From the sequence record MF158039: a stretch of 47,647 nt of DNA; one strand, written 5' to 3'. This document shows, piece by piece, positions 826 to 47,647 of the stretch. The stretch is from Shigella phage Sf12. The stretch's first letter is position 1. Every line of letters begins with the position of its first letter. The translations under genes and the position numbers were made by a program. The notes beneath the pieces are model-generated. The model ran no database searches and was not told the DNA's origin. It saw nothing but the letters and a program-made list of their open reading frames with translations.

Positions 826-978
826 ATGCTTAAACCATCTGACTTGAACTATTACGATCTAGAAACCATAGCCAAGTACAGCGGAAAGGGCTGGCCTGTT
901 GGTGACTACTTTAAGGAAGACCTTATAGAGAGCTTCGATATTGTTCAGAAAGCAATTGCAAAAGCGGCGAAGAAATAG
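826..978 (+). CDS. Hypothetical small protein, about 50 aa
   Basis: TAAATG coupling to previous gene; stop TAG is embedded in the next junction palindrome. Confidence 0.3.
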   Translation: MLKPSDLNYYDLETIAKYSGKGWPVGDYFKEDLIESFDIVQKAIAKAAKK

Positions 979-1018
979 CATTAATTGTTAAAGCCCTTCG
1001 GGGCTTATCATGTATATT
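975..1018 (+). promoter_or_regulatory. Junction cassette copy: palindrome TAGCA-N5-TGTTA (976..990), GC hairpin aagcccttcggggctt (991..1006) in spacer, -10-like TATATT (1013..1018)
   Basis: Read directly; leader aaacgagaggatttaaccATG. Confidence 0.5.
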
Positions 1019-1047
1019 CAATTAAAAGCAAACGAGAGGATTTAACC

Positions 1048-1401
1048 ATGGCTACTACACTGACTAAGAATTGGGTTAACGCTGAAAACAAACTATTTAA
1101 AGCTCGCGTTAAAGATGAGGTTGAGCAAATTAAGGTCGATGGCAAGTGGGTTAATCTCGAAATTAACGGTCATTACATTAAGACAAAGACACTACTTTGC
1201 ACCAAGGTTGACCACAGCAATCCACTCAAGAAATCATTTACTGAAGGAAAGCGTTATCAGATTTCTATGCATGCTGGATTAGGTCGTAATGCTGGCTACA
1301 TTTATGACAATGAAGGTGATGGCTGGCAACTTACTCGCGATGATGAGGTTGGCTATGATGTTGGTTATGGCATGTATAAATTTGAAGCTCAGTATAAGTA
1401 A
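1048..1401 (+). CDS. Hypothetical protein, about 117 aa (ORF 985..1401, start refined)
   Basis: ORF track; SD gagagga before ATG 1048. Confidence 0.5.
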   Translation: MATTLTKNWVNAENKLFKARVKDEVEQIKVDGKWVNLEINGHYIKTKTLLCTKVDHSNPLKKSFTEGKRYQISMHAGLGRNAGYIYDNEGDGWQLTRDDEVGYDVGYGMYKFEAQYK

Positions 1402-1446
1402 ATAGCACTTTTTGTTAATGACACTACCCGCTTCGGCGGGTATATT
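1400..1446 (+). promoter_or_regulatory. Junction cassette copy: palindrome TAGCA-N5-TGTTA (1403..1417), -35-like ATGACA, hairpin cccgcttcggcggg (1427..1440), -10 TATATT (1441..1446)
   Basis: ATGACA-17 bp-TATATT fits sigma70 spacing; leader ccatcgataacaacgagagagaataagATG. Confidence 0.6.
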
Positions 1447-1478: not shown

Positions 1479-3062
1479 ATGTTTGATTTTAACGAAGATA
1501 AGTTATCAGTAGAACAGGTAATGTCTGTAGCTGCAGCTGAGAATCTGCCACCTTTACGAGTTGCTATTAATGCAAATGGCTATCGCCAGAGCGCTTCATT
1601 CTGGAAAGCTCCTGTTGAGATTGATTCAACTGGTGATAAATATCCGGTCATTTCACTTGGAAATGATTGTGATGTCGTTGGTAAGTTATCAAGCAATATC
1701 GCACGCTCAGTTCAGTTCCCTGAGTCATCTGCTTATATGCATTTTCTTGGCTGCATATCAGCAGCAATGCTTGGTCGCTTCACTGTTGAATACCATGGAA
1801 CTCAGCAGCCTACATCCCTGTACGTCGTGACCAGTCAGCCACCATCAACTGGTAAATCTGCTATTAACTCATTATCAATCGCGCCAATGATTGCAGAGAC
1901 TGAACGACTGAATGAATTACGCAAGCGCGACCGTAAGAAGATTATGGCCAAATTGTCAGCGCTAGCCAAAGAGATGAAGCAGGAGAAGTCACCATCAGAG
2001 ATGGCTGGATTATTCGAAGAGAAAGAGGAACTGGAGGAGAAGTTAGAAAAGCTGTGTGACATTGTTTTTCCGGTGTCCGATACCACGCCTGAAGGCCTTG
2101 CTCGAATCAACAGTCGACAGGGTAACTTTTCAGTAATCTCCGATGAAGCAACTAGCGTGAACTCACTGTTAGGCATGACATATGGTGACGGCTCAAAGAA
2201 AACTAACAGCGAGCTGGTACTTAAAGCATGGGATGCTGGCAACGTATCTATCGCGCGTGCGAATGCAGAGAACAACATGAGCTTCATTGCCATGGGTTGT
2301 ATCTCGGTAATTGCGCAGGATGAAACAATCGTGGCCATCATGAATGCCGGCGCGCGTGGTATCGGTGTATCCGAACGTTTCTTGCTTGTGCGTGAAAAAT
2401 CATTCCTTGGTGAGCGTGTGTTCGTCGATGATGATGGCGAGTCAACATATGAACCAATTGATGGAGCTCTGAAGGCTGATTACTTCCGTCTGGTACATGA
2501 AATTATGAATGAGCAAGATGTTAAGCTGACTGTCAGCAATTCGGCAATGAAGCATCTCAATCGCGCGCGGCAGGAAATGGAGCCTCACCTTGCAGATGGC
2601 GGCAAATATTCACATACAATGCTGCGCGGCGCTTTGGGTAAAATGGATAAGCAGGTAATTCGACTTGCAGCAGTTCTTCACACTATCCGTAACTGGTTTA
2701 ACCCTAACGGCGGTAGTCCGCAGAAATCCAGAGAGATTGAACTGGAAACGATGCAGGAGGCTTTATTAATGTTTGAAGAGCTTAGTAAGACTTACTTGTC
2801 TTCCGCTAATGCTGCTGGTCACGCAGGTGATAATGCAGAGATGAATAAGCTAATTGATATCCTGATTAAGCAAGGCAAGAACAGCAAAGGAGTTGTAGGG
2901 TTGCGCTCACTTTATGAGGCTGCGCGTAAGGTTCGACCTTTTGAGGCTCAGACTGGCGTAATGGCTAAGATTAAAGACCATTTACTGCCGATGCTTGATG
3001 AGAAAAACTACACCTGCCTGATTGGTGATAAGGTTTACATTAATCCACGACTGCTGGGGTAA
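1479..3062 (+). CDS. P-loop NTPase-containing protein, 527 aa; N- and C-terminal segments are paralogous to 46060..46605
   Basis: Walker A-like QPPSTGKS; N-term MFDFNEDKL..NLPPLRVAINANGY and C-term KGVVGLRS..CLIGDKVYINPRLL shared with short paralog. Confidence 0.6.
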   Translation: MFDFNEDKLSVEQVMSVAAAENLPPLRVAINANGYRQSASFWKAPVEIDSTGDKYPVISLGNDCDVVGKLSSNIARSVQFPESSAYMHFLGCISAAMLGRFTVEYHGTQQPTSLYVVTSQPPSTGKSAINSLSIAPMIAETERLNELRKRDRKKIMAKLSALAKEMKQEKSPSEMAGLFEEKEELEEKLEKLCDIVFPVSDTTPEGLARINSRQGNFSVISDEATSVNSLLGMTYGDGSKKTNSELVLKAWDAGNVSIARANAENNMSFIAMGCISVIAQDETIVAIMNAGARGIGVSERFLLVREKSFLGERVFVDDDGESTYEPIDGALKADYFRLVHEIMNEQDVKLTVSNSAMKHLNRARQEMEPHLADGGKYSHTMLRGALGKMDKQVIRLAAVLHTIRNWFNPNGGSPQKSREIELETMQEALLMFEELSKTYLSSANAAGHAGDNAEMNKLIDILIKQGKNSKGVVGLRSLYEAARKVRPFEAQTGVMAKIKDHLLPMLDEKNYTCLIGDKVYINPRLLG

Positions 3063-5172: not shown

Positions 5173-5204
5173 CTTTTTATCCTCTCGTTTGTTTCGATGG
5201 AGTA

Positions 5205-5250
5205 AATATACGCCATCTTTTGATTTCTGTTTTAGCAATTCGTGCTATTT
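5205..5250 (-). promoter_or_regulatory. Junction cassette copy: palindrome (5233..5247) and -10-like TATATT (complement of 5205..5210)
   Basis: ttagcaattcgtgctattt; stop codon of HNH gene lies in the palindrome. Confidence 0.55.
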
Positions 5251-7194: not shown

Positions 7195-7240
7195 ACTATA
7201 CGCCATCCATGGCGATGTGTTTTAACAAAAAGTGCTATTT
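7195..7240 (-). promoter_or_regulatory. Junction cassette copy: palindrome-like TAGCA-N5-TGTTA (7223..7237), -10-like TATAGT (complement of 7195..7200)
   Basis: 22-bp gap; leader catcgaaacgagatataagagagtaaaacaATG. Confidence 0.5.
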
Positions 7241-8610: not shown

Positions 8611-8656
8611 ATAATACAACATCCTTGGTTTTCGTCTTTAGCAATTCGTGCTATTT
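8611..8656 (-). promoter_or_regulatory. Junction cassette copy: palindrome (8639..8653), -10-like TATTAT (complement of 8611..8616)
   Basis: tttagcaattcgtgctattt; palindrome encodes the C-terminal NSTNC and stop of the upstream gene. Confidence 0.55.
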
Positions 8657-11499: not shown

Positions 11500-11542
11500 A
11501 TAATAACAGCCATCAAAACCAATGTTTAACAAAAAGTGCTAT
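11500..11542 (-). promoter_or_regulatory. Junction cassette copy upstream of the helicase: palindrome-like TAGCA-N5-TGTTA (11527..11541), -10-like TATTAT (complement of 11500..11505)
   Basis: 21-bp gap; leader caatcgaacgaacatgaaagg. Confidence 0.5.
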
Positions 11543-11546
11543 CGAG

Positions 11547-12029
11547 GTGATAAAAGTGACTGAAATTGATAAGCGTACTCTTAACGGTAATAATGGAACC
11601 ATCCGAACAGAAGATAAGAAACCACGTAAACGGCCTTCAGGTTACTATGTGTTAAAGGATGAAGTAAAGGCTGGGCTGAGGGCAAGACTTGAGATTGTTT
11701 TAGACTTCTACGGCAGCAAGGCGAATATGGCGAAGCAATTAAAGGTTACTCGCCAGGCTGTTGAGGAATGGTTTAATCGCGGCATGATGTCGGCACGTGG
11801 CGCCCAGCTTGCTCACAATCGATACAAGCGAACTGGCGAAGGCTTCCGCGCTACATTTTGTCGACCAGACTTGCAGTTTGACGGTAACGGCAAGCCGCTA
11901 ACTCTGCGTTGCAAAAAGCGCCACATGCTACGCGTGGTCACTGATGCAGAATTAGCCACCAAGCCCGAGTGTCGCTCGTGGCGCAAAATTAAAGCAGCTA
12001 ATGAAGCAGCACGAAAAGCTAAAGAGTAA
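11547..12029 (+). CDS. HTH DNA-binding protein, candidate regulator
   Basis: HTH-like KANMAKQLKVTRQAVEEWFNRG; GTG start; divergent from helicase. Confidence 0.5.
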   Translation: MIKVTEIDKRTLNGNNGTIRTEDKKPRKRPSGYYVLKDEVKAGLRARLEIVLDFYGSKANMAKQLKVTRQAVEEWFNRGMMSARGAQLAHNRYKRTGEGFRATFCRPDLQFDGNGKPLTLRCKKRHMLRVVTDAELATKPECRSWRKIKAANEAARKAKE

Positions 12030-14840: not shown

Positions 14841-14887
14841 TTTATATTCTCTTCTCGTTTGATTGTGGGGCCGAAGCCCCGTTTAAT

Positions 14888-15538: not shown

Positions 15539-15565
15539 ACTTTTCCTCTCGTTGTCGATGAGGTA

Positions 15566-15608
15566 ACTATACCTCACCGATTTAATGTTGTTTTAGCTAT
15601 TAGTGCTG
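15566..15608 (-). promoter_or_regulatory. Junction cassette copy (degenerate palindrome 15594..15608, -10-like TATAGT complement of 15566..15571)
   Basis: 22-bp gap; conserved leader. Confidence 0.45.
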
Positions 15609-16570
15609 TTTTCGTATTTTGACATGTAGTATGAAGGAACCTGTAGCTCCATAGAGTCCTCAATCATGTTGTAGCCAGGCCAGCGGTCGTACTTCTTGCA
15701 CTGCTTGTATGTCGCCAGGGCTTCCATGTATTGACGCCGACCTAAGGCAATATGTGCATCTGATAGCGTGTAGCACATTGGTAAGTAGGGAGCCTTTTTT
15801 TCTTGAGCTAAAAGCCGAACTAAAACTTTACGTTTTTCGTTGAAAGCACGAACAAACAAATCTCTTTGCAAAGCCATTTTTAGCAGGTAACCATAATTGG
15901 CAGCTAGCCTACCAAACCCTTCAGGAGATGCGTCTGATGTCGTTTTAAAATCTGTAATTATGACCGTATCACCAACAACATCAACGTGGTCCAGCCTAAC
16001 CTTAACTCCGCACTCATTAATCTCTCCGAAGATTGATAGTTCCCTCTGAGCGGTTTCGCTGTTAACTATAGCGTTGTAAGCGGGAATGCCACACAACACC
16101 TCTCGCATCGCTTGTACGGTGTCAAAGTCCTTAGCTGATACAATCTCGCGGCCTTCGGCTTTAATCTCGCTAGATCGCTGGATATCCCACCATACGTTGA
16201 GTGATTCACCAGTCAGCGTCAGCATCTCCATCAATTCAGGGTAATCCTTGCCAGAAGTTCCCGTGATTCCCATCGCCTTAAGTCTTGCGGCTAATGCAGT
16301 CTTGCTTGTGATAAGGTCTTCAAACTCTTCCTGTGCTGGCTGTCGGTAATAAGTAGAATCGAATATGTCACTTTCCAAAATCATTGTATGTGCTGCGCTA
16401 CCAAATGAAAGCGCCCTGCTTTTCTCACTCTCCTGAAATCTAAATGCAGCAGGGCATGTTGAAAATATCTTAGCAAGACCGCTACCCGATACGTGATCAA
16501 CTTCTGAATGATAAGCATCATTTGTTAGCTCATCTCTCGTAAAGACCTTGAATTTCATTTTTCCCACCAT
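15593..16570 (-). CDS. PD-(D/E)XK recombination exonuclease (YqaJ/RecE-like)
   Basis: LDHVDVVGDTVIITDFKT D...D-x-K core; recombination-module context. Confidence 0.6.
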   Translation of the reverse strand: MVGKMKFKVFTRDELTNDAYHSEVDHVSGSGLAKIFSTCPAAFRFQESEKSRALSFGSAAHTMILESDIFDSTYYRQPAQEEFEDLITSKTALAARLKAMGITGTSGKDYPELMEMLTLTGESLNVWWDIQRSSEIKAEGREIVSAKDFDTVQAMREVLCGIPAYNAIVNSETAQRELSIFGEINECGVKVRLDHVDVVGDTVIITDFKTTSDASPEGFGRLAANYGYLLKMALQRDLFVRAFNEKRKVLVRLLAQEKKAPYLPMCYTLSDAHIALGRRQYMEALATYKQCKKYDRWPGYNMIEDSMELQVPSYYMSKYENSTNS

Positions 16571-18348: not shown

Positions 18349-18736
18349 TCAGTATGTATCCGTTTTGATTATTCGTGCTATTTTGTATATCGGTGTAAAC
18401 CTCACCTAAATACGTTTTGATGCTCCGTGCGCCGCATGGATGCTGAGTGTAACTCTTGTAACCAATGTATCCACCAATTTTGCACCCTATCTATATCTAT
18501 ATGCATTTCCTCCTTAACAGGAAATCAAACATAGTCTTTTAGAAAAACATACCAACATAGCAATAGAGAGTAGTTACACTATATACAAACAAATATAGTA
18601 ATAATAATAATTACTCTAAACCCTTATTATATAAGGATTTTATAGTGTAACTAATGCGTATCTGTGCGTAAAAAGCGTATACAATTTTCTGCGGATGAGA
18701 TTGTATACATCGAGTTACATCGGTTACGCGTATATC
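18349..18736. other. AT-rich non-coding control region between divergent operons; candidate origin/regulatory hub
   Basis: tatctatatctatatgcat, (TAA)n at 18598..18613, inverted repeat gtatacaat-N14-attgtatac (18670..18702). Confidence 0.5.
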
Positions 18737-18783
18737 AAATAGCACGATTTGCTAAAGACTCCCGCATCAGCCTTTGCTATAGT
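18737..18783 (+). promoter_or_regulatory. Junction cassette copy: palindrome (18740..18754), -10-like TATAGT (18778..18783)
   Basis: aaatagcacgatttgctaaag; 23-bp gap; leader ccatcgaaacgaaac. Confidence 0.55.
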
Positions 18784-18823
18784 TACTCCATCGAAACGAA
18801 ACATACTCACTAAGGAATACAAA

Positions 18824-23700: not shown

Positions 23701-24157
23701 CATTTAAATCTCCATTCTCTTCTTGCTTAACGAGTCTAGGCCAGAACAGCTTGACGCGAATTGCTGATAGCTGACTGTTGTTTACTGCTATGATGTAAGG
23801 TGTATCGTTGTTAATCTCGCGGCTAACCTGAATCTCTGATGCTGCACCATCTAGTCCGGCGATATAGTCTTGAGACTGAGTGCCAGGGCGAAATTCTGCG
23901 GTCACTCCTTCGTAGTTGAATGAGTTATCCTGGTTTTGCACGGGAACGTCAGCAAGGTAAAGGTCTTTAAGTGAAAAGCTTGAGTCAACCTCGCCATCAG
24001 CAACGGCCAGTAGCACCTTAATCTTGTTGAGTGAAATCAGGTTATCTTCTTGCTCTACAGGTGTGTGCTGCTTTTGGCTACCACCCTTGCTTCCATAAAT
24101 CTTTGGCAAATCGGCCATATCATATAACCTCGTTGTTTGTTTAACCATTTGTGCCAT
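20762..24157 (-). CDS. Central tail fiber / host-specificity protein (lambda gpJ-like); probable true start at Met 24118
   Basis: YSGTWDGTF ... DKWGLYEAAQFCDQMVPDGKGGMEPRYTCN resembles lambda J conserved core as recalled. Confidence 0.9.
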   Translation of the reverse strand: MAQMVKQTTRLYDMADLPKIYGSKGGSQKQHTPVEQEDNLISLNKIKVLLAVADGEVDSSFSLKDLYLADVPVQNQDNSFNYEGVTAEFRPGTQSQDYIAGLDGAASEIQVSREINNDTPYIIAVNNSQLSAIRVKLFWPRLVKQEENGDLNGTTCEYAIDLSVNGSAYTEYTRGVANGKTTTGYDRSIRVNLPAEFSSALVRIRKLTPDSTSSTLVNGMQITTYQEVIDAKFRYPLTALVYVEFSSDLFPNGLPPIAIKKRWKIIRVPTNYTPATRTYSGTWDGTFKMAWSDNPAWVLYDLVVSQRYGLDQRELGVEIDKWGLYEAAQFCDQMVPDGKGGMEPRYTCNVVIQQKVEAYQIIRDICSIFRGLTFYDGEQIGIVVDRPRQPSYVFTNDNVVDGLFNRTFASDKSLYTTANVQFDDVENNYQQDVEPVFDLEATRRFGYNPVDLTAIGCVRRSEANRRGRWLLKTNLRSETITFTTGLEGMIPMIGDVIAVNDQAWSSNYTLNLSGRIVEATGLQVFVPFAIDADPGDRILINKPDGSPEYRTIASVSADKLTLELNTAFSFTPQPDTVFAIDKQNLALQQYVVTGIQKANTDGEDSFQYSITAVQYDPNKYDEIDYGVNIDDRPTSIVDPDRILPPKNITVTSYSKVVQGMSVETMVIGYDKVQYAKTYNVQWRKNNGNWINVPETANTEVDIEGIYAGIYDVRVRAVTDQKSVSAWSEITTVSLTGKVGEPEPLQVITASDDEVFGIRVKWGFGNNSGDTAYVELQQVADNGDGTYTPENASLLTLVPYPQFEYWHTTLPAGKVIWYRGRTIDRIGNVSQWTDFVRGMASDDVSAIIGEIKVDIENSDGYKYLLQNAIDANADIQNQAEAIIENALANDTDVRVMRRENGARKAEYRQAVNLIANETEARVEALTQLKAQIDDEIVGQITTIETALATETEARATADTALSARLGDNEAALNQKLDSYATVEGVGVQYGVKLGLKYNGVEYGAGMSMELTGSGGNVRSQFIFDANRFAISNGISSGSGQWSLPFVVENNQVFIQSAVIQDGSITNAKIGGAIQSNNYVFGSVGWRLDKGGTFENNGSTAGEGRMKQTNETISVADANGRLRVQIGRLTGVY

Positions 24158-24169
24158 TCTACACTAAAT

Positions 24170-24190
24170 AAAAAACCCGCACTAGGCGGG
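24170..24190 (-). terminator. Hairpin plus T-run between I and J (possible attenuator)
   Basis: cccgcctagtgcggg then tttttt on minus strand. Confidence 0.45.
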
Positions 24191-24198
24191 TTGTGATT

Positions 24199-25992: not shown

Positions 25993-26040
25993 ATTATAGG
26001 ATAGCGCATTTCTGCGCTACCCAATTAACAAAAAGTGCTT
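25993..26040 (-). promoter_or_regulatory. Variant junction cassette upstream of the HNH gene: palindrome-like (26026..26040), hairpin, consensus -10 TATAAT
   Basis: ttaacaaaaagtgctt; tagcgcatttctgcgcta hairpin; TATAAT complement of 25993..25998. Confidence 0.4.
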
Positions 26041-26806
26041 AAGTCTGTTGGTTGGCTTTAGCTTGCAGGCTTGCGGCTGCACAACCGCCAAAGTCTAATT
26101 GATTGTTAGCTCCAAACCTTAACTTACAGGCGGTCACGGTTCCAGCACAGAAGTCTTGTGATGGGTCAGTCACAGGCGCGTTGTCCTTATCGAAATATCG
26201 AGTACCCATGTAGTTACATCCATTGCCTGAGCGGTAAAGCCCTCGCTGAGCCCAATAACAAACTGACTGAACAAGGCGCGCCGGAATGTAGATACCATCC
26301 ATATCCATCGGGCTGGTTAGTTCAAATGAGGCCGTATTGTAATCAACCTGCTTAGGTCGCTCAATGAAGTAAACCAGCTTGCGGTAATCGCCATCAGCAA
26401 TGGTGCCATCTTCGTTAATATTCTCCCGAAGGGTGATCCAGATAGTAACCTTGGCCTGAACAAGGCCATTGTAGGTGCGGATAAGCGCAGAAATGTTCTG
26501 GTCAACATTAGAGACAACTAGCGTTACTTTGTTTGCCTTGCCATCAGAAGTCATATTAATACCCTGAATACCGAATGGCCTTGCGCCGTACTCTTCACCA
26601 CGGAAAGTAATTGTCTTCGCTGAAATAGGTTGCCCCGTAGACTGAGCAATCATAATTTCTTCTGGTGTGTAGCTGATGTTCTCTCCATGGAAGCGATACA
26701 CCCTCCCGCCAAACTTAGTGCCATCAACCTCGATTAGCGTAACAATCTCGCCAGGGAACAGGCTTTGTAATTGATTCTCAAACTTAGTGCTTAATGGCGT
26801 AGCCAT
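26039..26806 (-). CDS. Minor tail protein (lambda gpL-like)
   Basis: C-terminal Cys cluster C..C..C..C; position between M and K. Confidence 0.7.
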   Translation of the reverse strand: MATPLSTKFENQLQSLFPGEIVTLIEVDGTKFGGRVYRFHGENISYTPEEIMIAQSTGQPISAKTITFRGEEYGARPFGIQGINMTSDGKANKVTLVVSNVDQNISALIRTYNGLVQAKVTIWITLRENINEDGTIADGDYRKLVYFIERPKQVDYNTASFELTSPMDMDGIYIPARLVQSVCYWAQRGLYRSGNGCNYMGTRYFDKDNAPVTDPSQDFCAGTVTACKLRFGANNQLDFGGCAAASLQAKANQQT

Positions 26807-27055: not shown

Positions 27056-27103
27056 TTCATTATCCTCGTTTGTTTGTTTTGGTCATTTCGTTTCGATGAA
27101 GTG

Positions 27104-27150
27104 ATAATACACCACTTCACCGATTCGTCTTTAGCAATTCGTGCTATTTA
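27104..27150 (-). promoter_or_regulatory. Junction cassette copy driving the moron: palindrome (27132..27146), -10-like TATTAT (complement of 27104..27109)
   Basis: tttagcaattcgtgctattta; 22-bp gap; leader catcgaaacgaaatgaccaaaacaaacaaacgaggataATG. Confidence 0.55.
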
Positions 27151-27498: not shown

Positions 27499-27529
27499 TT
27501 AAAATCCTTAGGGGCCGAAGCCCCATTTA

Positions 27530-33568: not shown

Positions 33569-33633
33569 ATTATATAGCCATATAAACAAAAATACCACCC
33601 CGAAGGGTGGTAGGTGATCAGCAATAATTGCTA
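33569..33633 (-). promoter_or_regulatory. Composite junction: palindrome (33619..33633) right after the capsid-gene stop, terminator hairpin (33596..33611), then -10 TATAAT (complement of 33569..33574)
   Basis: gcgTAA-TAGCAATTATTGCTG; ccacccttcggggtgg plus T-run. Confidence 0.55.
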
Positions 33634-34620
33634 TTACGCGAAGGTGATACCCTTCATGACTGCCATCGTTAAAGGCCTATACACGATCAAACCAGTTGCC
33701 TTGGAGGTTACTGGTACGCGGAAATGTAAATCCTTCGGCTGAGCCGGTAGTGCGTTAGTAGCTTCCGGAATCTCGATGGCCATGTTGTTCGGGTCTTTCT
33801 CATAAGCGATAGCTGCAGAGGTGCCAGTGCCATTGTAATCATTCAGGTACTGAACGAACTCAACAGTTACGCCGCTGTTGTTCTGGCGGAAGAATTCACC
33901 ATAGCTAACAGAGGTGCCAGGAACCAGGTTCTGCATGATACGACGAGCGGTAGTAGGCAGAAGAAGGTGCGTAGCGCGGTGCTGACCATTAGTTGAAGTC
34001 TCGATAATATCCAGAAGGCTTGTAATGTCGCTTACCGCTGTGGTAGGTTGAGCCCATGAGCCACCGCTAACAACGTTGTTGATATTTGGGTAGTCGAACA
34101 CGCTAGGGATGCCGTGAACGGTAGAGCCGGACCATACCAGTTTATCAAGCAGCTTGTCGTGAGCTTCGAAAGCCAAGGACTGCTTGCGAGCAGACAGTGA
34201 CTGACCAGTAGCCTGACCAACTTTAATTTCATCAATAGAAATCAGGAACGCGTTACCGAAACGGAAAACTTTACCCTGACGTTCAGTTGCTAAAGCGTCA
34301 ACCAGTGGCAGGTCATCAGTGTAGTCAGCTACGATCTGAGCAATACCAACGCCATCAAATACCGGATACTCAAAGTACTTAGCATAGCCAGGGATTTCAT
34401 TGCTTACAGGGAACAGGTTTACTACGGAGTTCTGATCGTACTCAGTCTCGTAAGCTTTATTCAGGCTTGCAGTGAGTTGCTTCACAGTCCAGATACCAGC
34501 CGCGTCGGCTTTATCAACACCCATCGCGCGCAGGTGGTTAGTAATCTTTTCTTGCTCGAAAGCGTCAAGTTTGATAGTCATATTAAGATGCATCCTTTTG
34601 TTTATGAGTTTACGTGTCAA
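33634..34620 (-). CDS. Major capsid protein (putative)
   Basis: 328 aa, followed by strong terminator; position in head module; no motif-level proof. Confidence 0.5.
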   Translation of the reverse strand: MTRKLINKRMHLNMTIKLDAFEQEKITNHLRAMGVDKADAAGIWTVKQLTASLNKAYETEYDQNSVVNLFPVSNEIPGYAKYFEYPVFDGVGIAQIVADYTDDLPLVDALATERQGKVFRFGNAFLISIDEIKVGQATGQSLSARKQSLAFEAHDKLLDKLVWSGSTVHGIPSVFDYPNINNVVSGGSWAQPTTAVSDITSLLDIIETSTNGQHRATHLLLPTTARRIMQNLVPGTSVSYGEFFRQNNSGVTVEFVQYLNDYNGTGTSAAIAYEKDPNNMAIEIPEATNALPAQPKDLHFRVPVTSKATGLIVYRPLTMAVMKGITFA

Positions 34621-43467: not shown

Positions 43468-43543
43468 TGGTGTTCCGCGCTGGACTCGAACCAGCAACTG
43501 AGACTTAGGAGGTCTCTGCGTTATCCTGTTACGCCAGCAGAAC
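43468..43543 (-). tRNA. tRNA-Arg (anticodon CCU, decodes AGG)
   Basis: Hand-folded cloverleaf: acceptor GTTCTGC/GCGGAAC, D stem GCGT/ACGC with GG in loop, anticodon stem GAGAC/GTCTC loop CTCCTAA, T arm GCTGG-TTCGAGT-CCAGC, encoded CCA. Confidence 0.85.
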
Positions 43544-44303: not shown

Positions 44304-44350
44304 ATCATATCAACTACCCATTCTGGCGTATTAGCAATTAGTGCTATTTG
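44304..44350 (-). promoter_or_regulatory. Junction cassette copy: palindrome (44332..44346), -10-like TATGAT (complement of 44304..44309); no long ORF downstream
   Basis: attagcaattagtgctatttg; leader catcaagacgaaacgaggagaagaaATG precedes only a 22-codon ORF. Confidence 0.5.
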
Positions 44351-44986: not shown

Positions 44987-45033
44987 ATAGTATCGCATCC
45001 TTGCGATTGATGTTTAGCAATTCGTGCTATTTA
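44987..45033 (-). promoter_or_regulatory. Junction cassette copy: palindrome (45015..45029), -10-like TACTAT
   Basis: tgtttagcaattcgtgctattta; palindrome encodes C-terminal NSTNC of the upstream gene. Confidence 0.5.
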
Positions 45034-45894: not shown

Positions 45895-46019
45895 TTTCCA
45901 AGTACCCCTTTGGTTTTTAGGTTTTTGCGGTAGAATTGCATAATGTGCTGATTGTAATAATTACTTGATGGATACTCTTTCATCTTTTTACCCTCTCCTC
46001 CCGTTTGGTTGATAGGGTA

Positions 46020-46066
46020 ATCATAGCTGACTACCCGATTTATTGTTTAGCAATTCGTGCTATTTA
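46020..46066 (-). promoter_or_regulatory. Junction cassette copy: palindrome (46048..46062), -10-like TATGAT (complement of 46020..46025)
   Basis: ttgtttagcaattcgtgctattta; 22-bp gap. Confidence 0.55.
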
Positions 46067-46605
46067 CCAGTCAGGGGATATTTCTTCTTCCTCTTAAGCC
46101 TCTCGATCTGCTCATCAATAGCCTTGATAGTAATCTCGTCAACAATCTTCTCGCAATCCTCGATGTTGAAGTCATCTTCCAGTGGCTTAACCTTGTAAGT
46201 CCAGTCCTGGTCGCCATCCAGCAGTCTAGGGTTGATGTAAATCTTATCGCCGATTAGACATGTATAACAAAGTTTATCCAGGCTTGGGATGATGACGTCC
46301 TTAATCTCCCGCATCACTCCACTCCGACCTTCGAATGGCTTAACTTTACGTGCCGACTCATATATTGACCTAAGGCCAACGACACCTTTACTGTTCATGC
46401 CCTGTTTAATGAGGATATCTATAGCCTTTAATGTGTCACGGTTAAGCTCAAAATCTTTCACCGCAGAAAGCTCTGGCCAGTAGTCCAGAGACTGCTTATA
46501 TCCGTTAGCATTGATTGCCACTCGCAACGGCGGCAAATTGTCTGCCGACGCTATCAACAACACTTGTTCGCTAGTTAGCTTATCTTCGTTGAAATCAAAC
46601 ATCAT
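46060..46605 (-). CDS. Short paralog (181 aa) of the 527-aa P-loop protein, lacking the central ATPase segment
   Basis: MMFDFNEDKLTSEQV..NLPPLRVAINANGY and KGVVGLRSIYESARKVKPFE..CLIGDKIYINPRLL match 1479..3062 ends. Confidence 0.6.
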   Translation of the reverse strand: MMFDFNEDKLTSEQVLLIASADNLPPLRVAINANGYKQSLDYWPELSAVKDFELNRDTLKAIDILIKQGMNSKGVVGLRSIYESARKVKPFEGRSGVMREIKDVIIPSLDKLCYTCLIGDKIYINPRLLDGDQDWTYKVKPLEDDFNIEDCEKIVDEITIKAIDEQIERLKRKKKYPLTGK

Positions 46606-47390: not shown

Positions 47391-47647
47391 ATATATATAT
47401 ATTAAGGACTTATGGCGTAAGTCATGGCGTAGCTTGGCGTACCTCGCGTAACGATGGCGGCTCAGCTTACATCGCGCTACTGAGGTTACGTGTATATGAA
47501 GGAAAAGGCCATGGCGAGCGATAAAACCAACCAACTAGTTGATACACTCCCCTTCATTCCATCCATCCATCAACCATTGCTCAATTCGCAACAGTCCAGA
47601 AAATCATTGCAATCGATGCAATATTGCTATACATGCAATAGTACTGT
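47391..47647. repeat. Terminal direct repeat, right copy (identical to 1..257)
   Basis: Exact identity read directly. Confidence 0.9.

Follow-up and report, generated by a model that had tools for sequence, protein, structure and literature searches.

The 47,647 nucleotides of Shigella phage Sf12 analyzed here (record MF158039; this whole stretch is called the window) carry two GC-rich hairpins with TTCG loops at neighboring plus-strand gene junctions near the left end. Each is nested in a promoter-like cassette, between a repeated sequence element and a -10 hexamer. At junction 1, an open reading frame (ORF) of 50 amino acids (aa) (826-978, +) ends with a TAG stop codon at 976-978, inside the repeat element AATAGCATTAATTGTTAAAG (974-993, +). 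Hairpin 1, aagcccttcggggctt (AAGCCC-TTCG-GGGCTT; 991-1006, +), follows with the tail ATCATGTATATT, a weak U-tract, and then come the -10 hexamer TATATT (1013-1018, +), a predicted +1 near 1025, a Shine-Dalgarno sequence (1034-1040, +) and an ATG (1048, +). At junction 2, the upstream ORF stops at 1399-1401 and the repeat element AATAGCACTTTTTGTTAATG occupies 1401-1420 (+). A -35-like hexamer, ATGACA (1418-1423, +), lies 17 bp from the -10 hexamer TATATT (1441-1446, +), and the arrangement ATGACA-N17-TATATT is a joint-best sigma-70-like match (10/12) in the first 20 kb. Hairpin 2 (TACCCGC-TTCG-GCGGGTA; 1425-1442, +; core cccgcttcggcggg at 1427-1440) sits inside this spacer, and its 3' arm overlaps the -10 hexamer, which begins the U-rich tail TATTTATAGC. 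The predicted +1 is near 1453-1454. The downstream gene (1479-3062, +) encodes a 527-aa protein identified as DUF3987 by Pfam and annotated as a DNA helicase in RefSeq relatives such as phiEB49; for the small proteins flanking the junctions, Pfam was uninformative.

The first 6 kb of the window are those of T1-like coliphages (Drexlerviridae, Rogunavirinae), with 84-88% identity and with phiEB49 (~88%), Phleasolo, e4/1c and JK06 among the best matches; the gene order is colinear with that of phiEB49. T1-like phages, which rank with the most common coliphages, are phage-therapy candidates.

The two hairpins lie exactly where the original prediction had placed them, and they are stable, as it had claimed. 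Hairpin 1 folds as RNA with -9.8 kcal/mol (z -3.0) and hairpin 2 with -12.5 kcal/mol (z -5.0), and in neither case was any of 200 dinucleotide shuffles as stable. Larger structures in the 91-nt contexts were searched for and none was significant. The stems have 6 bp (4 GC) and 7 bp (5 GC) and are closed by C(UUCG)G loops, as expected of terminator stems, and they start 13 nt (991-1006) and 24 nt (1425-1442) past the upstream stop codons. Such structures are overrepresented: the window has 8 perfect GC hairpins with a TTCG loop, compared with 0.34 +/- 0.55 in dinucleotide shuffles, and in 8/8 the TTCG is on the locally transcribed strand. Hairpin 2 passes the U-tract rule of our terminator scan (at least 5 T in 8), was called terminator-like, and has 6 T in the 9 nt past its GC core. 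Judged by sequence, the hairpin at 1427-1440 is the better terminator candidate and the one at 991-1006 is a weak one.

A repeated cassette built on a marbox-like element

Both junctions are copies of one cassette, which reads AATAGCACnnnTTGyTAAA, 18-19 variable bases, TATAnT, CATCGAAACGA, a Shine-Dalgarno sequence and an ATG. There are ~17 copies in the window, each beginning at or beside the stop codon of the upstream gene. When up to 3 mismatches are allowed, the sequence AATAGCAYTWWTTGYTAA occurs 16 times in the window, compared with 1.2 times expected, and a 17th copy is found at 18363-18382. When IMG/VR was scanned for the exact pattern, 120 loci were found; they come from over twelve T1-like genomes, TLS and Rtp among them. 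These loci gave 397 unique cassette variants, and 149 dereplicated cassettes were used for the logo and for the slot energies. The -10-like hexamer starts at offset 39 in 252/397 variants and at offset 40 in 45/397. In the logo, the upstream element is strongly conserved, offsets 21-36 have near-zero information, and conservation returns with a G two bases before the -10 hexamer (position -14), with the hexamer itself and with a C-A at offsets 50-51, which is likely the start site. No -35 hexamer is conserved among the 149 cassettes, and offsets 16-21 read AAAacn; the cassettes at 297 (ATGACC) and 1401 (ATGACA) are exceptions with a -35-like sequence. An extended -10 (TGn) was rejected as the cause of the conservation before the hexamer, since only the G at -14 is conserved. 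The family is a composite one, in which stop codon, promoter, stem-loop, Shine-Dalgarno sequence and ATG recur together between genes.

The original prediction had described the upstream element as a palindrome. The element is there, as a repeat, but only 4/5 of the positions are symmetric at both sites (TAGCA...TGTTA), and it is better read as an asymmetric, forward marbox. The consensus of the sites of MarA, SoxS and Rob is AYnGCACnnWnnRYYAAAY (PMC3709825, PMC2064960). The window has 12 sites with at most 1 mismatch to it, compared with 1.0 expected, and 4 of them are perfect; in the family logo, 13/14 of the specified marbox positions are at least 93% conserved. The marbox-like element with its RE1 (GCAC) and RE2 (AAA) is AATAGCACGAATTGCTAAAC. 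The Escherichia coli micF promoter reads ACAGCACTGAATGTCAAAAC, 18 nt, TAGAAT, 7 nt and +1, so that 38 nt separate the start of the marbox from the start of the -10 hexamer, as they do in the cassette and at junction 1. As at micF, GCAC...AAA reads with transcription, and its center lies ~-40.5 to -41.5 from the predicted +1. Forward marboxes at about -41 are those of class II promoters, which have no -35 (PMC10268841, PMC6900184, PMC8811837), and the cassettes share with these the 20-bp asymmetric consensus, the forward orientation overlapping the -35 position and the absence of a recognizable -35 hexamer. Hence, the repeat element is probably a marbox, a putative site for MarA, SoxS or Rob. 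With a MarA query, phmmer detected no phage-encoded MarA-like protein (best E = 1.7). No link between the marbox and T1-like phages was found in the literature searched.

Three other explanations of the cassette were rejected. A palindromic operator for a dimeric repressor does not fit stems that are too diverse and a repeat that is asymmetric and strictly oriented. L5-type stoperators were set aside because the fixed distance to the -10 hexamer argues for a promoter. Hairpin promoters of the N4 type are contradicted by the diversity of the stems, by the lack of an annotated RNA polymerase in T1-like relatives and by a 47-kb layout that is too small for one, the N4-type virion RNA polymerase having roughly 3,500 aa.

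The marbox-like parts at junctions 1 and 2 are at 975-993 and 1402-1420, respectively. Others are at 5230-5248, 7220-7238, 8636-8654, 11524-11542, 15591-15609, 18363-18381, 26023-26041, 27129-27147, 44329-44347, 45012-45030 and 46045-46063 on the minus strand, and at 298-316 and 18739-18757 on the plus strand. The element at 298-316 belongs to the cassette with the ATGACC -35-like hexamer and has a TATAGT -10 at 337-342. This cassette and that of junction 2, the two leftmost on the plus strand (298-342 and 1402-1446), have a weaker marbox (TAATG for TAAAY) and their -35-like hexamers, ATGACC and ATGACA, at 17-bp spacing; both may be early promoters that need no activator. The parts are ordered differently at 24139-24192 (-): a canonical terminator (AACCCGC-CTAGT-GCGGGTT with a T-tract) comes first, then a marbox that matches perfectly, ATGGCACAAATGGTTAAAC, and directly after it leader and ATG, with no -10 hexamer at the standard distance. 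Downstream of the -10 hexamer, CATCGAAACGA is conserved at offsets 50-60, from the predicted start on (C 69%, A 84%), for example at 5189-5199 (-) and 18788-18798 (+). The 5' end AUCGAAACGA would therefore be common to most phage mRNAs, and it could serve as a leader in their translation, stability or processing.

Hairpins in the variable slot of the cassette

The nesting of a hairpin in the promoter is a general property of these cassettes. A hairpin is carried in the variable slot by 36% of 303 unique cassette variants from T1-like phages, and a perfect GC hairpin lies between the element and the -10 hexamer in 82/340 cassettes, compared with 12.7 +/- 3.3 in shuffles, a 6-fold excess. The minimum free energy of the slot in the 149 dereplicated cassettes is -5.2 versus -2.2 kcal/mol (p = 2e-11, a value that, like the one given below, is inflated because cassettes of related genomes are not independent), and the flanking control segments upstream and downstream of the slot have no excess of structure. 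The stems are highly diverse (AAACCCGC, AAAGCCC, TACCCGC, GCCGGAT, CCCCGA, CGCCA, TCGCA and others) and share one location: their 3' ends cluster at offsets 38-42, with the -10 hexamer at 39-44, so that the 3' arm stops at or inside the hexamer. The stem-loops thus lie between the upstream element and the -10 hexamer or overlap the latter. UNCG and GNRA tetraloops are found 34 times on the sense strand and 3 times on the antisense strand, and the sense strand of the slot is ~1 kcal/mol more stable. Both asymmetries indicate that the structure matters in the sense-strand RNA.

The sequence past the hairpin differs with the class of its loop. After the 32 unique hairpins with UNCG or GNRA loops (mean -13.7 kcal/mol), there are 5.47 T in the 9 nt past the GC core, with at least 6 T in 62% of them. 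The corresponding values are 3.92 T and 11% for the 37 unique hairpins with a GGA-loop (mean -8.7 kcal/mol), 3.90 T and 12% for the 42 with other loops (mean -9.4 kcal/mol), and 3.80 T and 4% at the same position in 201 unique cassettes with no hairpin (mean -1.8 kcal/mol). The UNCG/GNRA class, to which both junction hairpins belong, is enriched in T relative to the hairpin-less cassettes (p = 3e-10). The T-rich tail is co-selected with these hairpins, which is a terminator signature, and textbook terminators such as AAAACCCGC-TTCG-GCGGGTTTT are found among them. Another stable slot hairpin in the window, GGGTAGCGCA-GAAA-TGCGCTATCC (25999-26022, -; -16.5 kcal/mol), belongs to the cassette starting at 26042.

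The GGA-loop class is a distinct one. GGA is found in the loop of 35/108 slot hairpins, compared with 5% of shuffled hairpins, and TCC in no more than 4. In many cassettes, these hairpins are at offsets 28-35. A large number follow the pattern xxCA-NGGA-TGxx at a constant offset, with CANGGATG at offset 28 in 18 unique slots, and the class has no T-rich tail. The window has two, CGCCA-TGGA-TGGCG (7201-7214, -) in the cassette starting at 7239 and ATCGCA-AGGA-TGCGAT (44992-45007, -) in the one starting at 45031. They resemble the CsrA hairpin obtained by systematic evolution of ligands by exponential enrichment (RUACARGGAUGU), and the GGA loop could form, with the GGA of the Shine-Dalgarno sequence ~35 nt away, a dual CsrA site that is present in read-through transcripts only.

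Four cassettes with no slot hairpin have a long hairpin that brackets the -10 hexamer and is paired in part with the conserved start region (...CATCGA); in the cassette at 7239, both types of hairpin are present. These hairpins are at 15555-15580, 27093-27123, 46015-46036 and 5196-5217, all on the minus strand, with -16.8, -18.9, -13.6 and -9.4 kcal/mol, respectively, and z down to -6. Their inner stems differ (GAGGTA/TACCTC, GAAGTG/CACTTC, GGGTA/TACCC), and no U-tract follows. From the marbox end to +10, the 149 dereplicated cassettes have -10.7 kcal/mol, compared with -5.2 kcal/mol in shuffles. The count of pairs bracketing the -10 hexamer did not discriminate real sequences from shuffles, and only the energy statistic was used. 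A pair count on 20 hairpins in the same register gave many two-sided changes, which are not independent evidence because the sequences were selected for folding. Finally, GGGGC-TTCG-GCCCC hairpins at 14867-14880 (-) and 27511-27524 (-) lie at gene junctions with no marbox, -10 hexamer or U-tract; the first is directly followed by the leader-like ACAATCAAACGA. Both sites resemble the cassette junctions minus the promoter.

At the junction of the capsid gene (ORF 33634-34620, -), the claim of the original prediction that the hairpin is a full terminator was borne out. The structure TACCACCC-TTCG-GGGTGGTA, followed by TTTTTGTTT, lies at 33593-33612 (-), right after the capsid stop codon, with a T5 tract. 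The junction spans 33569-33635 (-), with the marbox-like element at 33616-33634 and the -10 hexamer TATAAT at 33569-33574. Here, the inserted terminator puts the -10 hexamer and the leader exactly 22 nt farther away than in the standard cassette, and in two related cassettes a larger terminator displaces them by 11 nt. Shifts of 22 and 11 nt amount to about two and one helical turns and bring the marbox near -63 and -52; these few cases are suggestive of helical phasing. Forward marboxes are able to work near -52 or -63, as in zwf and ycgZ.

The relatives of the phage indicate how the cassettes are inherited. Hairpin 2 is conserved in 33 phage records, among which only the loop varies (TTCG or TCCG), and in 21/33 the match stops just past the -10 hexamer because a different gene follows. 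In e4/1c, Rogue1 and AHP42, hairpin 1 reads AAAGCCC-TTCG-GGGCTTT and its T tail is better; in AHS24, its stem is mismatched (AAAGCAC...GGGCTTT). At the junction of the helicase-like gene in AHS24, AHP42, Rogue1 and e4/1c, the repeat element and the -10 hexamer were lost and a GCCCC-TTCG-GGGGC hairpin was kept. In AHS24, AKS96 and AHP42, the homologous sites carry annotations for a promoter as well as a terminator (TransTermHP and/or WebGeSTer); in AHS24 and AHP42, the same two types of hairpin are listed as rho-independent terminators that overlap annotated promoters or lie next to them. The blocks of homology with AHP42 break at 1020/1048 and 1388/1466, which are the two cassettes, and most database matches to either cassette end right past the -10 hexamer. 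Overall, 26% of the ends of homology blocks are within 50 nt of a cassette, compared with 6% for random positions in a control that was not restricted to intergenic regions. Cassettes thus lie at the boundaries of indels and replacements between close relatives, and the sequences depict the combination of marbox, hairpin and -10 hexamer as a portable module at recombination joints.

Some features of the window are independent of the cassettes. Its last ~200 bases (~47448-47647) repeat the sequence at ~58-257, which by sequence is a terminal redundancy or an assembly overlap, and the window therefore looks like a whole genome plus an overlap. The left end (1-70) opens with (AT)6, GGCGTA occurs three times at 24-51 (tATGGCGTAAG, tcATGGCGTAGC and tTGGCGTACC), and ATTGCA/TGCAAT motifs cluster at 216-268; these repeats and motifs may be packaging or replication signals. 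The segments at 2853-3057 (+) and 46218-46422 (-) each match, inverted, the phiEB49 homologue of the other, with 67-69% identity, which suggests a diverged inverted duplication of the 3' part of the DUF3987 gene and of a gene at the opposite end of the genome. At gathering thresholds, Rfam identified only one tRNA (43471-43543).

Possible roles of the nested hairpins

The start sites, termination and activator binding discussed here are predictions from sequence. We propose, with fair confidence, that the hairpins nested in the promoter cassettes most likely terminate or shield the upstream transcript at the point where transcription of the next unit begins, acting as leaky terminators or attenuators and as protectors of 3' ends. 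Since they lie upstream of the predicted start of their own cassette, they can form only in transcripts coming from the upstream gene. Class II marbox promoters read no -35 hexamer, which would leave the segment of 18-19 bp as a free slot that the phage lineage has filled repeatedly with short hairpins. The hairpin would fold in the upstream transcript while the polymerase moves into the next promoter, where the T-rich -10 hexamer and discriminator would serve as an imperfect U-tract. A fraction of the polymerases would terminate and the remainder would read through, while the hairpin would cap the upstream message and protect its 3' end, and the next unit would be re-initiated a few bases downstream. 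Termination would probably be appreciable at 1427-1440 and weak at 991-1006.

Several observations weigh against this proposal. The scan did not call hairpin 1, which has 5/9 T past its core and ATCATGTA past the full stem, and in its 91-nt context the hairpin is outside the minimum-energy fold. It is also absent from the orthologous junction of phiEB49 and is therefore dispensable. The GGA-loop and other hairpins, about two thirds of those in the slot, have no T enrichment, so that a slot hairpin is not automatically a terminator, many cassettes carry hairpins bracketing the -10 hexamer instead, and the common denominator of the slot hairpins may be a function other than termination. The inflation of the p-values counts here too. 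At junctions 1 and 2, the element has 2 mismatches to the marbox, which makes these two of the weaker matches, and junction 2 has a usable -35-like hexamer, so that an activator may be dispensable there. In the literature searched, no usable transcript map and no mapping of transcript ends was found for T1-like phages or other Drexlerviridae, the one RNA-seq paper being on a T5-like phage. The combined terminator-promoter punctuation of the original prediction, which could set read-through between adjacent units, stands in part. The nested architecture is general, the T-rich tails of the UNCG/GNRA class, the strand-specific loops and the annotations in AHS24 and AHP42 agree with it, and there is a precedent in T4-like phages (see below). 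It is doubtful for the hairpin at 991-1006, with its poor U-tract and its absence from phiEB49, and for the two thirds of the slot hairpins with no T enrichment.

The hairpins could instead be only stabilizers of RNA 3' ends or barriers to processing, with read-through transcripts cut in the A-rich leader AUCGAAACGA, the upstream message shielded by the hairpin against 3' exonucleases, and the polymerase not released. This would account for the many slot hairpins with no T-rich tail, the weak tail of hairpin 1, the sequences that are not U-rich after the hairpins bracketing the -10 hexamer, and the same type of hairpin at promoterless junctions with no U-tract, as at 14867-14880. We nevertheless consider it unlikely, because the UNCG/GNRA class, including both junction hairpins, is enriched in T beyond the contribution of the -10 hexamer, several of its members are textbook terminators such as the one given above, and the capsid junction has a full T5 tract. 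Less probable still is an effect at the level of the DNA, by which GC-rich inverted repeats would tune the strength of the promoter or its response to supercoiling through the stiffness of the spacer or the extrusion of cruciforms. The hairpins do fit a fixed promoter segment of 18-19 bp, often overlapping the -10 hexamer, which in some cassettes lies in the loop of the inverted repeats, and the antisense strand also folds better than shuffles. However, a symmetric effect predicts neither the 34 versus 3 bias of the tetraloops, nor the additional ~1 kcal/mol of the sense strand, nor the tolerance of G-U pairs, and the hairpin was kept where promoter elements were lost.

We regard as very improbable that the hairpins have no present function and are either inverted repeats that arose by chance or relics carried along by a cassette that is mobile or recombines. 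That cassettes are mosaic joints, that phiEB49 has no hairpin 1 at the same junction and that the stem is mismatched in AHS24 could be read in this way. The 6-fold enrichment over shuffles, the 8 versus 0.34 TTCG-loop GC hairpins of the window, the many unrelated stems in one slot, the co-selected tail and the conservation of hairpin 2 in 33 phage records with changes in the loop only all speak for selection instead. A last alternative concerns the repeat element, which might be the site of a phage-encoded or other regulator, of the stoperator or enhancer type, with the hairpins as unrelated neighboring terminators. The authors of the reannotation of phage TLS left its function open (PMC11447400), the element has partial dyad symmetry (TAGCA-N5-TGCTA), and a small Cro-like helix-turn-helix protein (the 160-aa "regulator", with only a Cro-like Pfam match, below the cut-off) is encoded at 11547-12029. 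Yet the asymmetric element points in the direction of transcription in every case, it agrees with the marbox at 13/14 specified positions and lies as far from the -10 hexamer as the marbox of micF does, and its fixed 38-nt distance to the hexamer in ~75% of the cassettes is a property of promoters, not of roadblocks. Some of the genes that it precedes lie at the genome end, are probably early and can be read only by host factors. We find this alternative doubtful, about as much as that of mere stabilizers.

The proposal of leaky, protective hairpins can be extended to the promoters that house them. T1-like phages might build nearly all their promoters on the host class II Mar/Sox/Rob architecture, with transcription driven by the abundant host activator Rob or by stress-induced MarA or SoxS (RamA in Klebsiella and Salmonella) and with the 18-bp gap nesting terminators and other RNA hairpins. 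The slot of 18-19 bp can house hairpins because this segment is not read sequence-specifically in class II promoters. We offer this broader model tentatively, as a possibility somewhat short of even. If it is true, infection would depend on Rob, MarA or SoxS, and the antibiotic-stress and bile responses of the host would modulate the expression of the phage. The expression of its genes would in that case be coupled to how far the host is under xenobiotic, bile or oxidative stress, which would matter for combinations of phages and antibiotics.

Comparison with known systems

The upstream element has been seen before. The 2024 reannotation of TLS described the same 21-nt repeat, aaATAGCACnnnTTGnTAAAA, in TLS, T1, Rtp and Rogue1, ~76 nt before start codons; it listed no more than three sigma-70 promoters and left the repeats unexplained (PMC11447400). 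Our element is the same one, in the same orientation with transcription and at the same distance of ~76 nt from start codons. That study considered a stoperator, an enhancer or an UP element and did not include the distance to the -10 hexamer, the hairpins or the match to the marbox; with these, the 21-nt repeats gain a concrete architecture of marbox, free slot, -10 hexamer and start site. The cassettes share with class II marbox promoters such as micF the consensus, the forward orientation, the center near -41, the 18 bp to the -10 hexamer and the lack of a -35. They differ from them in being phage promoters, in having ~17 copies per genome, and in housing hairpins in the segment between marbox and -10 hexamer. 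Like canonical intrinsic terminators, the hairpins have a GC-rich stem and a stable tetraloop, lie on the sense strand directly past a gene and are followed by sequence that is T-rich to a varying degree. Unlike in these, the U-tract consists of the -10 hexamer and discriminator of the next promoter and is interrupted (TATATTTAT or ATCATGTAT), so that termination is probably partial. Terminators tucked into promoters would explain the compactness of the genome.

The nearest analogues are the promoter-early stem-loops (PeSLs) of the T4-like phages RB49, phi1, PST and nt-1 (PMC2839356, PMC4122927), whose stem-loop was shown to terminate or attenuate transcription and which have promoter activity and a role in modular shuffling (PMC2839356). 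Both are repeated intergenic cassettes that begin with a gene's stop codon and reach to the Shine-Dalgarno sequence and ATG of the following gene, both combine a promoter for the host RNA polymerase with a stem-loop that lies mostly between -35 and -10 or overlaps the latter, and both mark the boundaries of insertions, deletions and replacements between related phages. The differences are also clear. PeSLs belong to T4-like myoviruses and the present cassettes to Drexlerviridae siphoviruses, with no sequence similarity between them. PeSLs have an AT-rich UP region and the -35 (TTGACA) and -10 of a sigma-70 promoter, whereas the present cassettes have a marbox-like element and no -35. PeSLs are restricted to hyperplastic regions rich in ORFans, whereas the cassettes occur throughout the genome, including among structural genes. 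PeSLs are known from experiments and the cassettes from sequence. Hence, by analogy, the cassettes may be called PeSL-like, not members of the PeSL family. The nested promoter-terminator design is known from T4-like phages and has not been described for this phage family, and its presence here suggests that a PeSL-like route of module exchange exists in a second, unrelated family of phages.

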